From contig JBDHAB010000073.1 in the NCBI GenBank assembly GCA_039588295.1, positions 1 through 12,968 of the forward strand: DNA of 12,968 nt, given 5' to 3'. The stretch is from Gemmatimonadota bacterium (GTDB lineage Bacteria; Gemmatimonadota; Gemmatimonadetes; Gemmatimonadales; GWC2-71-9). This document shows, piece after piece, positions 364-12,968 of this stretch (within the stretch, counting starts at the first letter, position 1; every line of letters begins with the position of its first letter). The notes below the pieces were generated by a model. It was not told the origin of the DNA and did no database searches. It worked only from the letters and a program-made list of their open reading frames with translations. Position numbers and translations under genes: made by a program.

Positions 364-480
364 AATCATAATCCGCGTGTCGGGGGTTGACTGCACACTT
401 GGCAGTGCGCGGTCTCGCCTCACCTCGGGTCGCCCGCGCCGCGGGCTCGCTTGGTTCGGCGTCGAGTCCCTCCTCCGCTA
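364..480 (+). tRNA. 3' half of tRNA-Met (anticodon CAT); non-functional fragment and probable att-site duplication, interrupted in the T-loop
   Basis: Removing 389-462 gives AATCATAATCCGCGTGTCGGGGGTTCGAGTCCCTCCTCCGCTA: anticodon loop ATCATAA (CAT at 367-369), stem strand TCCGC, variable loop GTGTC, T-arm GGGGG-TTCGAGT-CCCTC, acceptor strand CTCCGCT and discriminator A. No D-arm or 5' acceptor strand lies upstream. Confidence 0.85.
389..462. mobile_element. 74-bp palindromic (REP/MITE-like) insertion in the tRNA T-loop
   Basis: Sits exactly between GGGGGTT and CGAGTCCC. Internal hairpins: ACTGC/GCAGT (390-405), GCCCGC/GCGGGC (432-446) and CGCC/GGCG (416-419/458-461). Mobility is inferred. Confidence 0.55.
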
Positions 481-485
481 TTCTC

Positions 486-514
486 CAAGCCGTTGACTTT
501 CAACGGCTTGTTCT
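486..514 (+). terminator. Intrinsic terminator-like hairpin downstream of the tRNA fragment
   Basis: Perfect 11-bp inverted repeat CAAGCCGTTGA-CTT-TCAACGGCTTG (486-510) followed by TTCT, 5 bp after the tRNA discriminator base. Confidence 0.7.
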
Positions 515-635
515 CTAGGTAGAACTCATTACCTAGCCCCGTACCCGGTGACTGTGGATGCCACCGTGGATCGGACTTCTCCAGGCAGTGAGCGCCAAAC
601 GCAGAGGACGTTGTCAACGCCGCGATCAGCAGGCG

Positions 636-1046: not shown

Positions 1047-1240
1047 GGGACCGCTCCTGCTGGCAGTCTGCACGTAGTAATACGGGAGAGGTGTCAAGAG
1101 CACGTCAAACAGAATCGCGAGTGAAAGGTTGGCGTTGACCGTTCGGAGGGATGCAGACGGACCACCGAAATGGTGGTGCTCTGCAATCCGACTCGATAAC
1201 CGAATGAAGCCACTGGTGTAGTTCTCGCGGCAGGACAATG

Positions 1241-1270
1241 GCCCCGGGCGTCACGCGGCGTTCGGGGCTT
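1241..1270 (+). repeat. Conserved intergenic hairpin A, copy 1
   Basis: GCCCCGGGCGTC-ACGC-GGCGTTCGGGGC-TT; near-identical to the copies at 2254, 3027 and 4410. Confidence 0.9.
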
Positions 1271-1621
1271 CCCTTTGCACCGGGGTGAGGGATGCGCGAC
1301 GGTGCCGCGAGGGTGTCAACGCATCGTCACCGGCGACACAACAACTCTCGAGTCGTGAGAGGCATACAGGACCATTTCACTTCAATTGTGGCGCTTCTGC
1401 GACTCTTGCAATCGTGTTGACCGAGACCCACTCTAGCGGAACAAAGAACTTCTGTCGGTGGCCCTCGACGGCCCCACGTGCCGCTGTAACGCTTCCAGGA
1501 CGCCCCCCGACCGCGAGACCGCCAGGCCGTCGTCGTCTTTGGAGGAGTTGGCCGGTTCGCGCGGAGTCTCCGTGCGGGAGCGGCCGGACGCAATTTCCCT
1601 TCGAGTTAGGTGAGGTGACTA

Positions 1622-2188
1622 ATGCCCGACAGCCCTGGCGAGACCATCATAAAGGTGGGGAGATTTGCCCTAGCCGCCCTATTTGGGAGTGTTCTTACGG
1701 TGTTCACGATTTTCACCCTGTTCCCAGAGAACACAACGAAGTGGAGTCCAGCGGACAACTACGGTGTTGAAAAAACTTGGTACAAGTTGCCCTTTAATGA
1801 TGAGTCAAACTTCACTGGGAGTTGGGGCTCATTCGTATTAGGCGCGTTTCCTCAGAACGAATGTATCAACATAAAGGGTATTTCGGGTTGGTACGGGGAC
1901 CCAAACGATGGAAGAAGCGTCAAGCTTTACGATGAATTTCAGGGTGATCATCCAGATTGGAACTTACCAGAAGGGATGAAAGTTCATATATACTGGGGCA
2001 GGGCGTGCTCCGATTGGAGACCCTATGGCGTGATAACAGTCCCCGCCAATGTCAAAAGTGTTAAAGTCCCGAGGCTCAATTACTCCAGTGAAAACTATGA
2101 AGTGTTCAACAACTTTGAACAACAAGATGGAGGAGATAGATCGCTCGGTGGTCACGTATATGGGATTCGTTGGTCTATTCCTGAATGA
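1622..2188 (+). CDS. Hypothetical membrane-anchored/exported protein (188 aa), low GC
   Basis: GAGGTG RBS before the ATG; hydrophobic segment FALAALFGSVLTVFTIFTLF; aromatic/Gly-rich, beta-like remainder. GC is 45% in a hand-counted 60-mer (1741-1800), well below the flanks. Confidence 0.75.
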   Translation: MPDSPGETIIKVGRFALAALFGSVLTVFTIFTLFPENTTKWSPADNYGVEKTWYKLPFNDESNFTGSWGSFVLGAFPQNECINIKGISGWYGDPNDGRSVKLYDEFQGDHPDWNLPEGMKVHIYWGRACSDWRPYGVITVPANVKSVKVPRLNYSSENYEVFNNFEQQDGGDRSLGGHVYGIRWSIPE

Positions 2189-2222
2189 ATAGAAGCCACG
2201 CGACTATTGACTGAGGCGACAT

Positions 2223-2248
2223 CGCCCGGTCCCAAGCCGGGCGGTAGC
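2223..2248 (+). repeat. Companion hairpin B, copy 1
   Basis: CGCCCGG-TCCCAAG-CCGGGCG-GTAGC, directly upstream of hairpin A copy 2; a second copy lies at 3658-3683. Confidence 0.75.
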
Positions 2249-2253
2249 GTGTC

Positions 2254-2286
2254 AGCCCCGAGCGTCACGCGGCGTTCGGGGCTTTT
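2254..2286 (+). repeat. Conserved intergenic hairpin A, copy 2 (terminator-like)
   Basis: AGCCCCGAGCGTC-ACGC-GGCGTTCGGGGCT-TTT; 13-bp stem with two G:T wobble pairs, followed by a T tract. Confidence 0.9.
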
Positions 2287-2436
2287 GGTTGTGATCACAT
2301 CAAACCTGACCGCACTACTCGTGTTGTGGCGGTGCTGCGTCTCTTGCGAACTCACCTATCGCAGTCACATTAGCCGGACGCTAATCCTGTCGGTGGCCTC
2401 ATCGGCCCCGCCGGTCCTCACTCTGGGAGTAGTCCG

Positions 2437-2961
2437 ATGAACGCAAGCGTCCTCTGTCTGATGATCATCACAGGGATGACAGTCCCGAACGTTTCAGCAA
2501 GTCCGCTTGTCCAGGACGATGTCAAAAGCCGGATCATCAGCACCACAAATACCTTGACGAGGCGTCAGGACCCTCCGCTCACCATGGAGACAATCGTCGG
2601 TTCTGTTCTCGAGCTGCTGGATCTATCGGCGGCCGTGACTCCCGACAACCAGTACAAGGCGGAGATCCAAAACCGAATCGCCGTGGCTAGGGATCGCATC
2701 AAGGACCTGTCCCTCTTCGATGACAAAGCCCGGCAATACCTGTCCTTCGCATACCGGATGATGACCGACGGCAGGAAGTACGAGATGCCGAAGGAACTCG
2801 ACGAGTTTGTCACCCCCGCCGAACTCCAGGAAAAGACGCTGCGATACGTGGATCGCCTCGTCACGCAGAGCCTTGAGGCGCTCGAAGCCGGGAACAGCCA
2901 GGATTCGGCCAGACTCCTCCTCGAAATCGTCCTAATGACCATCACTCCCCACCAGGGATAG
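2437..2961 (+). CDS. Hypothetical secreted alpha-helical protein (174 aa)
   Basis: GGAG RBS; signal-peptide-like N-terminus (MNASVLCLMIITGMTVPNVSA); amphipathic helical pattern; GC-biased third codon positions. Confidence 0.75.
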   Translation: MNASVLCLMIITGMTVPNVSASPLVQDDVKSRIISTTNTLTRRQDPPLTMETIVGSVLELLDLSAAVTPDNQYKAEIQNRIAVARDRIKDLSLFDDKARQYLSFAYRMMTDGRKYEMPKELDEFVTPAELQEKTLRYVDRLVTQSLEALEAGNSQDSARLLLEIVLMTITPHQG

Positions 2962-3026
2962 TGGCCGTGAAGGGTGAGGAGAAGGGGCTGCACTGTAGCT
3001 CCAGCAGCTAGTGCACGATTCTCCCC

Positions 3027-3058
3027 AGCCCCGAGCGTCAGGCGGCGTTCGGGGCTTT
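3027..3058 (+). repeat. Conserved intergenic hairpin A, copy 3
   Basis: AGCCCCGAGCGTC-AGGC-GGCGTTCGGGGCT-TT; the hairpin differs from copy 2 only in the loop. Confidence 0.9.
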
Positions 3059-3154
3059 CCAGCCCGTCCCACCGTCATCTCCGACAACGCCTTTGCTGTT
3101 TCTCACGGGAGACGGTCTGTACGTTGTCCCTGTTCCTCTCCAAAGGAGAACGCC

Positions 3155-3625
3155 ATGCGCCGCATGATTCTCCCGCTGATGTTGTTTGCGTTCGCTGCGT
3201 GTCAGCCTGCCACGATGGAACTCACCGAGGCCCAGAAGGCAGAGATTGAGGAAGCAGTCAGGCAGGTGGATTCCGACTTCCACGCAACGTGGCAGGCGCG
3301 TGAAGACATCGATGCGTACATGAGCTACATGTCTGACTGGTCGTCCACATCTCCGTTCGGCGACGAATCGCTCGATGCCCAGCGCACTCGGGTCTTGGCA
3401 TGGTGGGGCGCACAGAGCAGTGTGACCATCGACCGGGGTGAGAGGCGTGTCCTTGTAATGGGACCCGACGTTGCCGCTGTCGAAGGAACGAATGTGAGGG
3501 TCGCCACCGACACGACCGGTGCCATCAGGGAACGAACAGGCACCTACACACGGGTTTGGATACGGGAGAATGGCGAGTGGAGAGTCTTTGCGCAGAAGGG
3601 CTACGCTCGCACGCGAGAGGAGTAG
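3155..3625 (+). CDS. NTF2-like/SnoaL (DUF4440-type) domain lipoprotein (156 aa)
   Basis: Start reassigned to ATG 3155 (AAGGAG RBS). Lipobox FAAC. NTF2-like pattern: N-terminal helix, DIDAYMSY, VLVMGPDVAAV and C-terminal YTRVWIRENGEWRV. Confidence 0.85.
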   Translation: MRRMILPLMLFAFAACQPATMELTEAQKAEIEEAVRQVDSDFHATWQAREDIDAYMSYMSDWSSTSPFGDESLDAQRTRVLAWWGAQSSVTIDRGERRVLVMGPDVAAVEGTNVRVATDTTGAIRERTGTYTRVWIRENGEWRVFAQKGYARTREE

Positions 3626-3657
3626 CGAGCGGTCCTCTCGCGTCACCCGCACGTCGC

Positions 3658-3683
3658 CGCCCGGCCCCGCGCCGGGCGGTAGC
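3658..3683 (+). repeat. Companion hairpin B, copy 2
   Basis: CGCCCGG-CCCCGCG-CCGGGCG-GTAGC; same stem and GTAGC tail as 2223-2248 with a different loop. Confidence 0.75.
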
Positions 3684-3756
3684 ATCTCACCCATCAACCC
3701 ACAGGTAACGAACTTCCTCCGAGTGCGGAGAAGTGAGGAATGGGGAGGCGTCACCA

Positions 3757-4317
3757 ATGATAAGGATTCTTCGGCTTGTAGGTTCGTTGTCATTCGTGCT
3801 TGGGCTATTCACCGTCATCTTCGTCGGCGTTCCGTGGGCCATCGTGGTCGAGGACAACCCCGTGGTCCCGGTCTGGTTGAGGGCGGCGGTTTTTGGCGTC
3901 CTTGGGGGCCTGCTCCTGGTCTTGCTGACGGTGGTGCTCGAACAGCGGAGAGGCTGGATGCCGGTGGAGGCGCCTCGCCTCACCAGCGGCGATTCCCAGG
4001 TTCTGCTGTTGAACTCGGATGCCGTGCCGGATAGGGCGGTGGGTGAAATCCTGGGACTGGTCCAGGGTCACACGGTCTTCGCCATATGGTTGGGGAACGA
4101 CCTGTCCGCCCTCATGCGGCTCATCGTCGGTGGAGAACTGACCGAGTATACCGAGATGATGGGGCAAGCCCGCGCAATCGCAACTGATCGAATGGTCGCC
4201 AGGGCCGAGGAGAAGGGGGCGGACGCCATCATCAACGTGCGTTACATGACGACGGGCGTCGTGGGCACGGCTTCCGAACTCCTGGCATACGGCACGGCGG
4301 TGAAACTGGCCGCGTAG
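3757..4317 (+). CDS. YbjQ/UPF0145 (putative heavy-metal-binding) domain protein with two N-terminal TM helices (186 aa)
   Basis: GGGAGG RBS before ATG 3757. The C-terminal ~105 aa carry YbjQ motifs (LGLVQG, IVGGELTEYTEMM, ARAEEKGADAIINVRY, ELLAYGTAVKL); two hydrophobic segments lie at the N-terminus. Confidence 0.9.
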   Translation: MIRILRLVGSLSFVLGLFTVIFVGVPWAIVVEDNPVVPVWLRAAVFGVLGGLLLVLLTVVLEQRRGWMPVEAPRLTSGDSQVLLLNSDAVPDRAVGEILGLVQGHTVFAIWLGNDLSALMRLIVGGELTEYTEMMGQARAIATDRMVARAEEKGADAIINVRYMTTGVVGTASELLAYGTAVKLAA

Positions 4318-4409
4318 TCCATCTGGATGCTCGTGAGCCCGATCGTGTCGGGACTAACTGAGGTGCCCTACTGTCAGGCGGTTAGAACCCTAGGTGGTGG
4401 TGGTCAGAC

Positions 4410-4434
4410 AGCCCCGACCGTCACGCGGCGTTCG
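4410..4434 (+). repeat. Conserved intergenic hairpin A, copy 4 (3'-truncated)
   Basis: AGCCCCGACCGTCACGCGGCGTTCG, then divergent; the closing GGGCT is missing. Confidence 0.8.
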
Positions 4435-4581
4435 CTGGAGGGGCCCGACCCCGCCCGGGCACCCCCGTTTCGGTGTGGGCAGCCTGCCTTATCCGCGCAG
4501 CACGTTTTCAGGAAACCGGGGCCGAAGGGCCCGCTGATCGGCGAGTCCTCGCGGAGACTCGACGGCATTGGCCTTCGGTAG

Positions 4582-4860
4582 TCACCACAGATCGGGCGGG
4601 GGACCCTTCCGCTCGAATACGTAGGTGAACCCGTCCTTCGCCCACGTGATGCGGTCGCCGCGCACCGTGCCGGACGAGAAGGGGCCGTAGTCCCGGTGAC
4701 GATACATACAGTGGAACACGAGGGAATCGGGTGCAACGAGAGTGTAATCGCCCCCGCCCCCCAGGTACCTTCCGCCCCCCTCCTGCGGAAGTAGTGTATC
4801 CCAACGGTGCCACGTTGTATCGCCAGCCTCCTGCAAGGAAGAGTAGGAGCCACACGCACT
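4582..4860 (-). pseudogene. Possible 5'-truncated remnant of a lipocalin-like beta-barrel protein
   Basis: The C-terminal part (GGGDYTLVAPDSLVF...SSGTVRGDRITWAKDGFTYVFER) looks like a beta-meander; the ORF N-terminus looks non-coding and has no clear RBS or signal peptide. Confidence 0.35.
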
Positions 4861-5092
4861 GTTAGCGCGCTTCCGATGATGCGGCGCTGTGATGCGCGGG
4901 GTCGCTGTCAGAGCACCTTCCGCCACGGACACAATGACTACGAGTGAGTTGATCGCCGAGTTCTTCGAGTCGACCAGCAGGCAGGATCGATAGCGCGCTT
5001 GCCGCTCGCCGCGATCACCGAGAAATCGACGTGTTGCGCACGCCGAGAGCCTATCCTCGTCTCCGCAACCAACGTGAAGTCTGATCCCGGCC

Positions 5093-5491
5093 CTATTCGC
5101 TGTCGTTGATCGTCACGTAGAGCGCGGAGGCAGCCACCACGTATTCCTGAACCACCACCTGCCACTCGTCGGGGTCGTTGCTCTTCAACCCCTGCAACTT
5201 GCTGTTGAGCTGGTTGAGCATTCCCTTGAGCTGGTTGACCTCGCCCTGAACGCTGGCCGAGACCATGCCCTTCATGGTGCCGGGGGCGTCGCCGCGGCTC
5301 TTGGAGAACGCCGATCCCTTCATCATGACGTTCTTGGTCCCTACCTTCGTCTTCTTCTTCTGAGCCTCGCTCGCCGACTTGGCGATGTTCGGGTAGGGAA
5401 TGGGTACCGGAATGGGTATTGCGGGAGTCTTACACACGTCGGGGAAGGAGATAGAGAGACCGCTGCTGGCCTTCGACTTTGCTGGCATCAT
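5093..5491 (-). CDS. DUF4150/PAAR-like domain protein, C-terminally truncated and fused to a helical tail (132 aa)
   Basis: DUF4150 motifs FPDVCKTP, PVPIPYPN and SRGDAPGTMKGMVS; AAGGGA RBS upstream; then heptad-like NQLKGMLNQLNSKLQGL. Confidence 0.85.
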   Translation of the reverse strand: MMPAKSKASSGLSISFPDVCKTPAIPIPVPIPYPNIAKSASEAQKKKTKVGTKNVMMKGSAFSKSRGDAPGTMKGMVSASVQGEVNQLKGMLNQLNSKLQGLKSNDPDEWQVVVQEYVVAASALYVTINDSE

Positions 5492-5588
5492 GATCGCTAC
5501 GTCCCTTCTGGTTGTTCCGTGCTACGATCACCGGTCCAGGTGCTCGCGTCCATCGACTGCGCGGGCGCAGTTCGAACGCCGTACGTCC

Positions 5589-5604
5589 TGATAAGTTACC
5601 GTTT
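5589..5604 (+). promoter_or_regulatory. Putative extended -10 promoter for a leaderless methyltransferase mRNA
   Basis: TG-A-TAAGTT (5589-5597, TGnTAnnnT) ends 7 nt before ATG 5605; there is no Shine-Dalgarno sequence. Confidence 0.45.
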
Positions 5605-7176
5605 ATGACCGCGTACGACGAGGTCCCCTACGACTGCCAGCCGATCCCGTGCACGGCGCCCGAACAGCTTGCCACGGCGTCGCTGTTTCACGGCGGCCCC
5701 TGCCCGCCGATACGCGATGGTGCGCTTCTCGAGATCGGCTGCGGTGACGGAGCCAACCTCCTGGCCCTCGCCTTTCATCGCCCGGATTTCCGCTTCGTGG
5801 GGGTCGATGCGTCGACGGCACAGATTGCGGAGGCGCGCCGGTCGAGTTCCCACATCGGCGTCGCGAATATCGCGCTCCACGCCGCGGACATTGCGGAGAT
5901 CGGTCACGAGCTCGGGACCTTCGACTACATTGTGGCCCACGGGATGATGTCATGGGTGTCAGACGAGGTGCGCGATCAGATCTTCGCGCTCTGTCGCAAC
6001 CAGCTTGCCCCCGACGGGCTGCTCTACCTCAGCTACAACACCCATCCCGGATGGCTCGCCCGAGGGTTGGTGCGCGATACGGTCCTTCGGCGAACCGCCG
6101 CACACCAGTCGCTACGAGAGATGGCCGGTGAGGCCCGTCGTCGCGCCGACGTCCTCCGGCTCGGGCTCCAGGGCAACGACCACCCGTACGCCCGACTCCT
6201 AAGCGACGAGCTGAGACGCGTGGACCGAGTCAACGAGAGGTACCTGATCCACGAGTACCTCGCCGAACACAATCGCGCCTTCTGGTTTCGCGACTTCGCG
6301 TTGCTGGCCGCGCAGTTCGGGTTCCGCTATGTGGCCGAAGCGGCGTTCACGGAACGCGACTACCGTGTCCCGCCCGCCGTGCGCGAGGCAGCCGCCGAAC
6401 TGGAGCGCGAGCGGCTCGAGATCGAGACGCTGATCGACGTGCTGTGGTTCCGCCAGCATCGTGCCTCGCTCTTCTGCCACGCCGACCGCCGGTCGTCGCT
6501 CGGCCCAGACAGGCTTCCGCTCGAACGCATGACGGTCGCGTCGGGGTTGCGGGCCCCATCGGATGGCGTGCGGCTCGATCCGGATGTTGAGGAGTCGTTC
6601 ACCGGACACTTCGAGCCGGAGGTCGCCATCGAACTGAGCGATCCGCTGCCGAAGGCCGCGCTGGTAGCCGTGACACCGCACTGGCCGCGCGGCCTTCCCT
6701 GGGAACGGATGCTGCATGACGCCAAGGCGATCTTGGCAAATGCCGGCATTCAATCTCCAAGCGCCGACGATGAACGTGACCTCCGGGCCGAGTTCCACGC
6801 ATTGCACGCGCTCGGCCAGGTCGAGTTCCGGCTCCGGGAACCGCCGTGGCGCGGCACGCCGAACGGGCTCCCAACGGCCACGCGGCTCACGCGATGGGAA
6901 GCCGAGCGGCGCGCCGTGATCACCGCCGCGACCCACCACCGGCTCGGGCTCACGCCGGCTGACCGCGTGATCATCTCACACCTGGACGGTGGGTATGAGC
7001 GGGCGGCGATCGTCTCTGCCGTCGTGGAACAGCTGCGGGCTGGTGACGTGCGCGAATGGCGGAAGGAAGGATTGATGTCGAGCGATGGGTCCGAATCCCT
7101 CACCGGCGAGCAGTGGGCCGAGCGGCAACTCGACCGTAGCGTCGCGCTCCTCGAGGCCTGGGGATTGTGCGAGTGA
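5605..7176 (+). CDS. Class I SAM-dependent methyltransferase with methyltransferase regulatory domain (Rickettsia PKMT-like architecture), 523 aa
   Basis: Start reassigned to ATG 5605 (MTAYDEVPY). Motif I LLEIGCGDGANL, then FVGVDAS, FDYIVAHGMMSWV, LAPDGLLYLSYNTHPGW and the regulatory-domain motif YLIHEYLAEHNRAFWFRDF. C-terminal winged-helix-like region (IISHLDGG). Confidence 0.9.
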   Translation: MTAYDEVPYDCQPIPCTAPEQLATASLFHGGPCPPIRDGALLEIGCGDGANLLALAFHRPDFRFVGVDASTAQIAEARRSSSHIGVANIALHAADIAEIGHELGTFDYIVAHGMMSWVSDEVRDQIFALCRNQLAPDGLLYLSYNTHPGWLARGLVRDTVLRRTAAHQSLREMAGEARRRADVLRLGLQGNDHPYARLLSDELRRVDRVNERYLIHEYLAEHNRAFWFRDFALLAAQFGFRYVAEAAFTERDYRVPPAVREAAAELERERLEIETLIDVLWFRQHRASLFCHADRRSSLGPDRLPLERMTVASGLRAPSDGVRLDPDVEESFTGHFEPEVAIELSDPLPKAALVAVTPHWPRGLPWERMLHDAKAILANAGIQSPSADDERDLRAEFHALHALGQVEFRLREPPWRGTPNGLPTATRLTRWEAERRAVITAATHHRLGLTPADRVIISHLDGGYERAAIVSAVVEQLRAGDVREWRKEGLMSSDGSESLTGEQWAERQLDRSVALLEAWGLCE

Positions 7177-8884: not shown

Positions 8885-9517
8885 CTATTCGCCTTCCTCT
8901 TCTTGAACGGTGGGGACCGCGGAAGGCTGGGCAGAGCTGTCAAGTCGCTGGCGCAGCAGCCATACCAGCACAGCCCCACTCATCGCCCCGTACACGGCCC
9001 CGACCGCGGCCCAACCCGGGAACCCGCCCGCGGCGCCCACGGGGACCGCGCCTGAGAGAAACCCGCCCACAACCCATCCCACGCCGCTGGCCAGCACCCA
9101 CCAGCCCGCCCGGGCGAGCTGCCGCCGCAGCAGCAGCCATTGCAGCACACCGAGCACGGTCCCGAATAGGACCGTTCCCACGACCCAGCCCACATCCGCG
9201 TCGATCACGCCCACGGCGAAGACCATGACACCGAGGGCGGCAACGGCCACGATGCTGGCCGGCACCCACCAGCCCGCCCGGGTGACCTGCTGACGCAGCA
9301 CCAGCCATTGCAGCACCCCGACCCCGATCCCGCCTACGTTCACCCCCATGTACCCGGCCACGACTATGTCCCAGGACGAGCCCACGGCCACGCCTACGGG
9401 TCCGCCCAGGCCCAACCCCACTGCGCCGGCCAGTACCCACAAGAGCCAGAAGCCCCAGCCGGGAGCCGAGGGATTATCCGAAGGATCGTCGGTGCTGCCG
9501 CTAGTCTGCTCAGCCAT
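8885..9517 (-). CDS. Multi-pass Gly/Trp-rich membrane protein with internal repeats (210 aa)
   Basis: AGAAGGGG RBS; about six hydrophobic segments; repeated motif GVLQWL[V/L]LRxQxxRAGWWV[P/L]AS. Confidence 0.85.
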   Translation of the reverse strand: MAEQTSGSTDDPSDNPSAPGWGFWLLWVLAGAVGLGLGGPVGVAVGSSWDIVVAGYMGVNVGGIGVGVLQWLVLRQQVTRAGWWVPASIVAVAALGVMVFAVGVIDADVGWVVGTVLFGTVLGVLQWLLLRRQLARAGWWVLASGVGWVVGGFLSGAVPVGAAGGFPGWAAVGAVYGAMSGAVLVWLLRQRLDSSAQPSAVPTVQEEEGE

Positions 9518-9627: not shown

Positions 9628-10156
9628 ATGACCAAACCGGCCCGGGCGTATCATCACGGGGACCTCCGGGCGGCACTGCTGGACGAAGCCGCCGCAATGA
9701 TTGCAGAGGCTGCTGGTCGCCGTCGCCTCGGCCGGCTTCAGCCGCCTGCAAGAACGCCTGCAAACCATCCACCCGGGCGCTCCGGGATCCAGCGTCGAAC
9801 GCGTCCGGCGCATGGGTGAGGAGTACGTGCGTTTCGCCCTCGAGAATCCGGCACACTACCGCGTGATGTACGGGAGGGAGGCGCTCACGCGCCAAGACCG
9901 ACCCGAGCTACGCGAGGCCGCAAACGCCTTGTTCGAGGAATTGGTCGTCGTGTTCCAGGCCTACCAGCAGAGCGGCGGGATCAGACGACAGGATCCTCGA
10001 GCGCAGGCCTACGTCGCTTGGAGTGCGGTGCACGGGCTGGCCTCATTACTGATCGACGGGCAGATCCAGGCCACCGCCGACGTTGACGGGCTTATCCGGC
10101 AGACCACGCGAACGGTGCTGGACGGGATGCGCGTTCGCCGCCGCCGTGAATCCTAA
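9628..10156 (+). pseudogene. TetR/AcrR family regulator (WHG-type C-terminal domain), HTH deleted and frameshifted
   Basis: One frame gives MTKPARAYHHGDLRAALLDEAAAMIAE, a classic TetR helix 1. Near 9708 the protein continues in another frame as LLVAVASAGF...YVRFALENPAHYRVMY...AWSAVHGLASLLIDG. The intervening HTH (LSLRxxARxxGVSxxAPYxHF-type) is absent, and the 529-nt span is not a multiple of 3. Confidence 0.88.
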
Positions 10157-11732: not shown

Positions 11733-11819
11733 GGGCTGCCGAGCACGCGTCTGCACACCGTGACAAACCCACACGTTGGACACCGCCATACTTCGACTGG
11801 AAACCAGAAGCCCGCAACC

Positions 11820-12968
11820 ATGACATCCGGCCCCCTTCTCATCCTGTTACTGATCCTGGCGATCCTCTTCATCATCGTGGGGACCGCGACGGTGAAGATG
11901 CATCCGTTCATCGTGTTGCTGATCACCGCGTATGGATTGGGGCTGCTGGCCGGGCTTTCGCCCGAGGCGGTGACGCAGGCAATCACCGAAGGGTTCGGCG
12001 GGACGCTTCGGTACATCGGCATCGTCATCGCCGCCGGCACCATCATTGGTGCGATTCTGGAGCGGGGCGGGGCGGCGCGCGTGATGGCCGAGACCGTCAT
12101 CCGCTGGGTCGGCCGCGCCAGCTCGGCGCTGGCGATGAGCCTGACAGGGGCTATCGTCTCGATCCCGGTCTTTTGCGATTCGGGCTACGTGGTGCTCTCG
12201 CCGCTGAGCCGGTCGCTGGCCGCCCAGTCGAAGCAGTCGTTGGCGGTCTATGCGGTGGCGCTGAGCATGGGACTGTACGCGACGCACGTCTTCGTGCCGC
12301 CTACGCCGGGACCCATCGCCGCCGCCGCCGAACTCGGCGCCGACATCGGAACGGTCATCATCCTGGGGCTCATCACGACGATCCCGGTGATCGCTGCGAC
12401 GTACCTGTTTGCGCGGTACATGGGCCGCCGTATCTACATCGATCCCGCCCACGAGCCGGAAGCCGCTGAGGCCGTCGAAGCCGCCGAGACGGAGCGCCTA
12501 GCGCCGTGGAAAGCGTTCGCGCCCATCGCCGTGCCGGTGCTGTTGATCGCCGTACAATCGATAGCCGCCCTGCCGGCGAAGCCGTTTGGCGAAGGCGCGG
12601 CGTATACGCTGCTGCGTTTTCTGGGCAATCCCAACACGGCGCTGCTGCTGGGGGTGTTCATCGCTTTTGCGGTGGTGTGGAAGCAGCGGCCGGCGGTCTA
12701 TGGCGCGTGGGTTGGGGCCGGGTTGAAACAGGCGGGGACCATCATCCTAATCACGGGTGCAGGCGGGGCCTTGGGCAAGGTGCTTCAGACCACGCCGCTG
12801 GGCGATTACCTGGGCGAGACGCTCGCGCCGCTGGGGTTGGGGCCGCTGAGCATCCTGTTGCCCTTTTTCATCGCCGCCACGCTCAAGACCGCGCTGGGCT
12901 CGTCCACCGTCGCCATCATCACGACGGCCTCCATCATCGCGCCGCTGCTCGATTCGCTGGGGCTGGCT
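11820..12968 (+). CDS. GntP family (gluconate:H+ symporter-like) permease, partial, runs off the window end
   Basis: Translated by hand from ATG 11820: MTSGPLLILLL...KMHPFIVLL...GFGGTLRYIGIVIAAGTIIGAILERGGAA...SIPVFCDSGYVVLSPL...THVFVPPTPGPIAAA...LKTALGSSTVAIIT. It is missing from the ORF track because there is no stop in the window. Confidence 0.93.
   Translation, partial: MTSGPLLILLLILAILFIIVGTATVKMHPFIVLLITAYGLGLLAGLSPEAVTQAITEGFGGTLRYIGIVIAAGTIIGAILERGGAARVMAETVIRWVGRASSALAMSLTGAIVSIPVFCDSGYVVLSPLSRSLAAQSKQSLAVYAVALSMGLYATHVFVPPTPGPIAAAAELGADIGTVIILGLITTIPVIAATYLFARYMGRRIYIDPAHEPEAAEAVEAAETERLAPWKAFAPIAVPVLLIAVQSIAALPAKPFGEGAAYTLLRFLGNPNTALLLGVFIAFAVVWKQRPAVYGAWVGAGLKQAGTIILITGAGGALGKVLQTTPLGDYLGETLAPLGLGPLSILLPFFIAATLKTALGSSTVAIITTASIIAPLLDSLGLA

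Follow-up and report, generated by a model that had tools for sequence, protein, structure and literature searches.

A repeated terminator-like hairpin as a candidate joint for single-gene exchange in tRNA-associated islands of a Gemmatimonadota genus

We analyzed a stretch of 12,968 nucleotides (nt), hereafter the window, that constitutes the entire contig C73 of a Gemmatimonadota genome (G000) and carries a cassette-like array of four genes bounded by two short repeated hairpins, here called A and B. An earlier note on this DNA had described the array and had proposed that its genes were captured at a dedicated recombination site. In our analysis, the array was confirmed, although not as a one-off, and movement of single genes at the hairpin found support, while a dedicated recombination site did not. 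The array and the sequence ahead of it contain the following features:

364–481, plus strand: 3′ fragment of tRNA-Met, a duplicate of attachment-site (att) type of the tRNA-Met on contig C66 of G000, with a 74-nt structured insert at 389–462
482–581, plus strand: arm of a putative decayed tRNA-Met element, the integrase being lost here; in genome G007, the same sequence stands between a full tRNA-Met and an integrase end
1240–1269, plus strand: hairpin A, copy 1
1284–1523, plus strand: repeated leader module L1, a mosaic of sub-blocks, with 10–18 blastn matches elsewhere in G000 over 1284–1408
1622–2188, plus strand: gene 1, 188 amino acids (aa), N-terminal hydrophobic stretch, 47% guanine plus cytosine (GC), a rare family with five homologues at 46–60%
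2223–2243, plus strand: hairpin B, a second repeated terminator-like family, often 7–11 nt ahead of A
2254–2283, plus strand: hairpin A, copy 2, equal to the consensus and terminator-like by terminator scan
2298–2355, plus strand: repeated leader sub-block, which contains the start (2319) of a gene 2 segment common to genome G004 at 94%
2437–2961, plus strand: gene 2, 174 aa, predicted signal peptide
3027–3056, plus strand: hairpin A, copy 3
3066–3157, plus strand: repeated leader module L2, with an invariant TAnnnT hexamer (putative −10 box), a ribosome-binding site and a start codon, the similarity extending into signal-peptide codons
3155–3625, plus strand: gene 3, 156 aa, SnoaL/DUF4440-like, predicted lipoprotein
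3658–3678, plus strand: hairpin B alone, a boundary without A
3757–4317, plus strand: gene 4, 186 aa, membrane-anchored YbjQ_1 protein
4410–4434, plus strand: hairpin A, copy 4, truncated in the 3′ arm

The array and its repeated modules

As had been reported, the window holds hairpin A at four sites in one orientation, with the corrections that the first copy starts at 1240 and that the last breaks off before its 3′ arm is complete; relative to the copy at 2254, the copy at 1240 has two mismatches and that at 3027 has one. Hairpin B was likewise borne out at both of its sites. Our gene caller placed exactly one plus-strand gene in each of the four units, but units 3 and 4 are divided by B without A, and the short hairpins are not the only elements at the boundaries, as larger repeated leader modules that had been overlooked (1284–1523, 2298–2355 and 3066–3148) also stand there. 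The genes do differ in GC content (47, 57, 60 and 62% for genes 1–4), but against 64% in the genome only gene 1 is clearly low. That all four are envelope-targeted agrees with a crude hydropathy test, which found a hydrophobic N-terminus in each. Genes 1 and 2 had no match in Pfam. By DNA search, genes 1 and 4 were not detected in eight genomes of the genus and four further genomes, and gene 4 was not found by a protein search at an expect value (E) of 1e-30 or lower in 60 genomes of the family. Two public DNA runs, which belong to different studies, have contigs that span the junction of gene 3, hairpin B and gene 4 without differences; one of the runs may be the source sample.

Across 158 full copies of hairpin A, the 12 inner stem pairs were kept in 89–99% and the outermost pair in 78%, and one G·T stem pair was replaced by G-C in 43 copies. 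The hairpin carries a T-rich tail, and the RNA fold of its top strand is more stable than that of the bottom strand; it thereby has the shape of an intrinsic terminator and is predicted to be one. Three of the four loop positions are about as conserved as the stem bases, which fits either a recent common origin or recognition of the sequence. Truncated copies are broken at varied positions, and a search of Rfam gave no match. Leader blocks were compared by blastn and clustering, since single-sequence hidden Markov models were too weak for most of them. Of the 176 flanks downstream of A, 97 fell into five clusters, comprising leaders L1 and L2, kinase-gene leaders and attachment arms that end in tRNA fragments. 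In nine aligned copies of L2, the TAnnnT hexamer is invariant and is accompanied by the ribosome-binding site and the start codon, and a promoter function is predicted for the leader modules. Repeats other than A make up 21% of the intergenic DNA within 6 kilobases (kb) of A, compared with 3% elsewhere. Two more repeated non-coding blocks are found at 164–268 and 11750–11794 of the window, the former being directly followed by hairpin A on contig C59 and by an att arm here.

Distribution of hairpin A and exchange of single genes

The earlier remark that the window has no further copies holds, but in G000 as a whole a profile search gave 82 hits to hairpin A at E≤10; 57 of these are distinct copies at E<0.01 and are spread over 27 of the 160 contigs. 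Because a reversed control pattern gave no match in 41 genomes, a chance origin of these matches is excluded. Six of the ten contigs longer than 100 kb, amounting to 1.26 megabases (Mb), are free of A, which is thus not an ordinary genome-wide repeat behind core genes. Most copies (52 of 57, random mean 28.8) lie on contigs shorter than 25 kb or within 10 kb of a contig end, and 39 have a neighboring copy within 3.5 kb (random mean 6.6). Such neighbors are co-oriented in 23 of 24 pairs in G000 and in 46 of 49 pairs in the loci of relatives. For gene context, we relied on our own gene caller and counted genes scoring at least 12. Within called genes, there is no copy in G000, and there are four of 89 in relatives' loci. 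In 44 of 54 cases, the gene ahead of A has the orientation of A, which follows its stop codon at a median distance of about 55 nt; the downstream gene is co-oriented in 31 of 56. The 56 co-oriented genes adjoining A represent 49 families; set against other genes, they are short (median 178 aa vs 299 aa) and rich in hydrophobic N-termini (40 of 56 vs 1273 of 3734). When 60 of 64 A-adjacent proteins, from 18 contigs, were scanned against Pfam (E≤1e-5), 32 were matched and 28 were not, and no core family of translation or replication was among them. In one place (G000:C20, 18135–21407), a truncated A stands between two tandem YadA-head/Peptidase_S74 genes.

Outside G000, the pattern of hairpin A was found in seven of eight other genomes of the genus (0–40 copies) and in none of 32 other genomes. 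In a sample of the phylum, three of 396 genomes outside the genus carry one or two copies. All 48 exact-match stretches in a collection of species genomes come from records labeled Gemmatimonadota or Gemmatimonadales, with 14 accession prefixes, and they presumably belong to the phylum Gemmatimonadota. Variants of A are homogenized by lineage: one variant accounts for 17 of 24 copies in G004 versus 19 of 120, and the 19 copies in genome G045 have a loop variant of their own. Such lineage-specific variants fit frequent exchange among copies.

Two control stretches free of A were syntenic in seven relatives at 66–76% identity and represent core DNA; two A-rich stretches of 20 kb gave gene-by-gene matches only, at scattered places. 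The A-rich loci that we fetched contain 86 segments shared across genomes at 85% identity or more over 350 nt (85–98%), of which 69 comprise one gene, eight comprise two and nine comprise none. Fifty of these segments involve G000, and since the core is only 66–76% identical, vertical descent is ruled out as the source of their identity. The genomes G003 and G008, as well as G001 and G002, are close pairs, and the segments shared within them show rearrangement only. Judged by these comparisons, genes do move singly across species of the genus, in agreement with the earlier expectation that genes come and go at the hairpin boundaries, as the hairpin often limits the shared segments.

Homologues of gene 2 elsewhere, whose flanks the earlier note had suggested comparing, stand in other neighborhoods and have the hairpin only in part. 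In G005, this gene (73% identity) is accompanied by its trailer and A, and in L103 (92%) it has a truncated A behind it, a degenerate A in front and other neighbors, but in G004 (94%) it is reversed, without A and in another neighborhood, and the homologues in L104 and L105 also stand without A. At the other end of the window, a GntP-family permease gene (11820–12968) is 95% identical to its counterpart in G008 and 86% to that in G001, with different neighbors; core DNA is about 70–76% identical, which identifies gntP as another single gene that was exchanged recently. Contig G008:C71, which has gntP in common at 95%, was considered as the orthologous locus and rejected for this reason, so that no safe orthologous locus was found. 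The region 4474–5723, which encodes a PAAR-like protein (Tox-PAAR-like) and a 523-aa methyltransferase, matches G004:C30 at 77–90%.

The neighboring tRNA-Met island invoked by the earlier note could be recovered only partly: the array does lie behind an attachment-site fragment of tRNA-Met, but this is a 3′ fragment only, and the window contains no integrase. ARAGORN called no tRNA in the window, and no end overlap joins C73 to C66, the contig with the tRNA-Met integrase. We infer that the start of the window is a decayed tRNA-Met element. G000 has 30 matches to tRNA fragments outside its tRNA array, in which 19 called tRNA genes occupy about 16 kb (G000:C14, 47647–63751), and 19 of the 57 copies of A are no more than 5 kb away from a tRNA 3′ fragment. 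Random placement gave 4.2, with a maximum of 12; the copies are clustered and so not independent. On contig C93, a tRNA-Ile is followed by an integrase remnant, cargo with three copies of A and a tRNA-Ile fragment, and on C5, three genes, each followed by A, stand between two tRNA-Ala fragments. Hairpin A also adjoins the att arms of tRNA-Ser, tRNA-Ala and tRNA-Leu elements, and neighboring elements encode integrase, HTH_17 (excisionase-like) and small terminase domains. The marks of tRNA-targeting islands, namely duplicated tRNA 3′ ends, integrases or their remnants and cargo between att duplicates, were found among C93, C5 and the start of the window. We also observed structured inserts of 38–81 nt in the T-loop of tRNA 3′ fragments of att type; they are found in fragments for Met, Ser, Arg and Leu, at the same point and with shared first and last letters. 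These inserts occur in the window (389–462), on contigs C44 (313 and 3913), C69 (3581) and C46 (three) of G000, and in L015, L020, L061, L070 and L071; a search for them gave 12 tRNA-linked matches and one spurious match on C1, with other variants in public runs.

Recombination at hairpin A and competing explanations

Among 24 in-register pairs of A copies that share at least 300 nt of flank (seven of them within one genome), one pair shares both sides, ten share the downstream side only and 13 the upstream side only. Sharing in the ten downstream pairs starts at −4 to +1 relative to A (six), at +13 (two) or past A (two), and never more than 4 nt upstream of A, and in the 13 upstream pairs it ends at +26 to +37 in both copies (seven), at mixed positions (two), before A (two) or 200–250 nt past A (two). 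The 53 segment ends in spacers with a single A comprise 23 in A, 27 before it and three beyond it, as compared with 10.3, 21.6 and 21.1 expected by length; without sister pairs, the corresponding counts are 14, 16 and two (expected 6.4, 13.5 and 12.1). One copy of A in G003 matches a G008 copy in its upstream flank and diagnostic variants, and matches another G003 copy in its downstream flank. The diagnostic variants, which are few, place one crossover in the 3′ arm of A and suggest another at its 5′ edge. Joints in the contigs of public runs link repeat modules and probably derive from other loci. As only a minority of ends lie in A, and as crossover and break points vary, A appears to be a favored but not obligatory boundary, with no fixed position.

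Because genes common to related species often begin or end at A, A is likely a common joint. In our preferred reading, to which we give a probability of roughly 0.6, hairpin A, a predicted terminator, acts together with B and the leaders as a homology anchor for ordinary recombination that swaps single genes in decayed tRNA-integrase islands. Foreign DNA would be delivered by natural transformation or by tRNA-targeting integrative elements, which also have A just inside their attachment arms. The incoming DNA would pair at A, at B plus A or at A plus a leader, over 30–250 base pairs (bp); these modules are the only highly similar non-coding DNA that we saw between these species. A crossover within A or a leader would then join one side, and the far end would be closed either in another module or through an illegitimate join that needs only short homology. 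After every round, a single gene equipped with start and stop signals of its own would remain, and a cassette-like array could grow with no cassette enzyme.

This reading has some drawbacks that need to be considered. A strict terminator scan was passed by only one of the four copies in the window (2254), and a sigma-70 scan called no consensus promoter on its plus strand. BLAST alignments pass through any two copies of A and stop early in diverged spacers, which inflates the counts of ends in A and before A, and the 53 ends are not independent, as they include reciprocal duplicates and close sister genomes. When all 72 ends in G000 are considered, 47 lie in unique intergenic DNA, nine in A, eight in other repeats and eight in genes, and only 12 of 145 ends lie in A in both genomes. 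Neither a circle nor a deletion or joint from A to A was seen in the contigs examined, including those of public runs. The genomes are fragmented assemblies of uncultured organisms, and G041, a single contig of 5.5 Mb, has five scattered copies of A and no array. ComEC is present in all nine genomes and DprA is present as well, but both are also found in 10–11 of 14 control genomes and, being nearly universal, provide no evidence of competence.

A number of these observations would suit another explanation, in which A, whether a terminator copied passively or a small mobile palindrome, has spread by local duplication and gene conversion; the genes would move by unrelated illegitimate events, and A would be no more than a hitchhiker or an apparent boundary. 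The 47 of 72 ends in unique spacers, the lineage-specific homogenization, the alignment bias toward ends in A and the homologues of gene 2, which has its own trailer and A in two places and no A in three, are all in line with it. Random junctions, however, predict about 21 of the 53 ends beyond A, where three were seen, and eight of the ten downstream-sharing pairs start inside A or at its edge, where A is the neighbor's terminator, with the upstream spacer included in none of them. For a mobile palindrome, moreover, one misses a terminal tag, inverted dimers and a nearby Y1 gene: within 8 nt of A, GTAG was found at three of 158 copies and CGTC or its complement at 17, inverted dimers make up one of 24 neighboring pairs in G000 (shortest spacing 431 nt) and three of 49 in relatives, and no A of at least 14 bits lies near 12 of the 13 Y1_Tnp loci fetched. 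We consider this explanation unlikely, though not negligible. A Y1_Tnp-like gene at G000:C5 80423 and in L168–L172 occupies the same place in a pyruvate-dehydrogenase-type operon in six genomes, without A, and is possibly a domesticated HUH gene.

The earlier note had favored a dedicated site run by the integrase of the neighboring island or by an HUH/Y1 enzyme. In its stronger form, this reading would make A the core of a site for site-specific recombination of an undescribed kind, with a second role as terminator, on which a tyrosine recombinase from the tRNA-island elements acts in trans. The result would be a true cassette system: an integron analogue with promoter-carrying cassettes that captures and reorders genes across species of one Gemmatimonadota genus. 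Indeed, the sequence of A would allow two 11-bp arms with an asymmetric spacer of 8 bp between them, its loop is nearly as conserved as its stem, its copies are strictly co-oriented and identical across species with a core diverged by 25–30%, and it adjoins the att arms of three kinds of tRNA element. This variety of tRNA specificities, though, does not suit one neighboring integrase; A is one of several modules and takes up nine of 72 ends; gene 2 moves with or without it, and most genes are moved without being flanked by A on both sides. The crossovers look variable on the few diagnostic variants, some pairs placing them at the 3′ arm and another at the 5′ edge, and truncated copies have varied breaks, which also tells against a fixed site. 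No recombinase or Y1 gene tracks the copy number of A in the genomes compared: G003, with 29 matches to A, has only three tyrosine-recombinase matches (two XerC/D-like, one island-type), G000 has 13, and a serine resolvase was found in one of nine genomes. A dedicated site is thus doubtful in our view, and improbable in this form.

Integron attC arrays have one gene per unit, co-oriented repeats and mostly small unknown genes, and their sites carry RYYYAAC and GTTRRRY boxes. The array shares with them the single-gene units, the co-oriented repeats and the predominance of small unknown genes, and one of the tyrosine recombinases of G000 is an integron integrase (IntI) above the TIGR02249 cut-off, so that an integron remnant (a cluster of attC sites lacking an integrase, CALIN), with degenerate attC sites processed by this enzyme, could be envisaged. 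Yet A is much shorter, at 30 nt, the units bring long leaders, and, as the earlier note had recognized, the repeats are not attC: the boxes bracket one of 158 full copies (80 nt on either side), and the window has no integron integrase. Nor does A occur on C3, the contig of IntI, or near four other integron-integrase loci examined. A heuristic attC scan of G000 found nothing, also beside IntI, but it had no positive control and was not used. An integron remnant is therefore a very improbable source of the array. The integrase gene (C3, 774–1757) is located at an end of its contig, next to one possible cassette gene.

Known systems and further genes of the window

The closest parallel to the proposed anchor is found in the promoter-early stem-loops (PeSLs) of T4-type phages. 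In the available portions of two accounts (PMC2839356; PMC4122927), these are intergenic terminator-plus-promoter repeats, about 50 per genome, which gather in hyperplastic regions, flank small orphan genes and are proposed as exchange points between otherwise unrelated sequences, with activity and mini-circles demonstrated. Hairpin A is likewise an intergenic stem-loop repeat in hypervariable regions beside orphan genes, and it bounds gene differences between relatives, here for a minority of all ends. It differs in lying on a cellular chromosome, inside tRNA-integrase islands, with no exact match in viral contigs; in a conserved core that is the terminator-like hairpin itself, with different leaders as alternatives where PeSLs have one sigma-70 promoter; and in an exchange that spans species about 66–76% identical. 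By analogy, the system of A may work like a PeSL, but it is not one.

Other known systems resemble parts of the picture. Tycheposon- or PICI-like (phage-inducible chromosomal island) islands at tRNA genes contain, as here, partial tRNAs, integrase remnants and scattered HTH_17 (excisionase-like) and small terminase genes; the accessible part of that account (10.1101/2020.12.28.424599) does not mention a repeated joint in the spacers that separate single cargo genes. In the immunity arrays of the Vibrio type VI secretion system (T6SS), homology-facilitated illegitimate recombination, with one homologous anchor and one non-homologous join, is proposed to be repeated and to build up a single-gene array (PMC5361080), and such an array could arise here in the same way. 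In Vibrio, flanking coding sequence provides the anchor and the loci are fixed, whereas the anchor here would be a dispersed non-coding repeat between unrelated genes. Repetitive extragenic palindromes (REPs) with GTAG/CGTC tags and REP-associated tyrosine transposases (RAYTs) are, in the available part of their description (PMC3733652), lineage-specific palindromes of 20–40 bp downstream of genes. A is similarly a short, lineage-specific palindrome behind genes, but it has no terminal tag or inverted dimers, is limited to variable regions and flanks no Y1 gene. We found no description of such repeats in Gemmatimonadota, or of PeSL-like repeats in a cellular chromosome, in a literature search whose coverage leaves out most subscription journals and supplements.

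Species whose core DNA differs by 25–30% are expected to recombine only seldom, but these have single genes in common at 85–98% identity. Identical terminator and leader repeats would provide such species with common joints, and an arriving gene with working start and stop signals. Cassette-like arrays could in this simple way arise with no integron, a route for which experimental demonstration has so far come from T4-type phages. A 30-bp handle also opens to testing a standing question, namely the way in which bacterial islands capture single accessory genes and put them in order.

Two observations concern genes elsewhere in the window. The gene at 9701–10156 encodes a TetR C-terminal domain, with no N-terminal helix-turn-helix match in the called frame, and its start may be broken or miscalled. 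A membrane-protein gene contains an internal repeat of 115 nt (78%) at 9079–9361.

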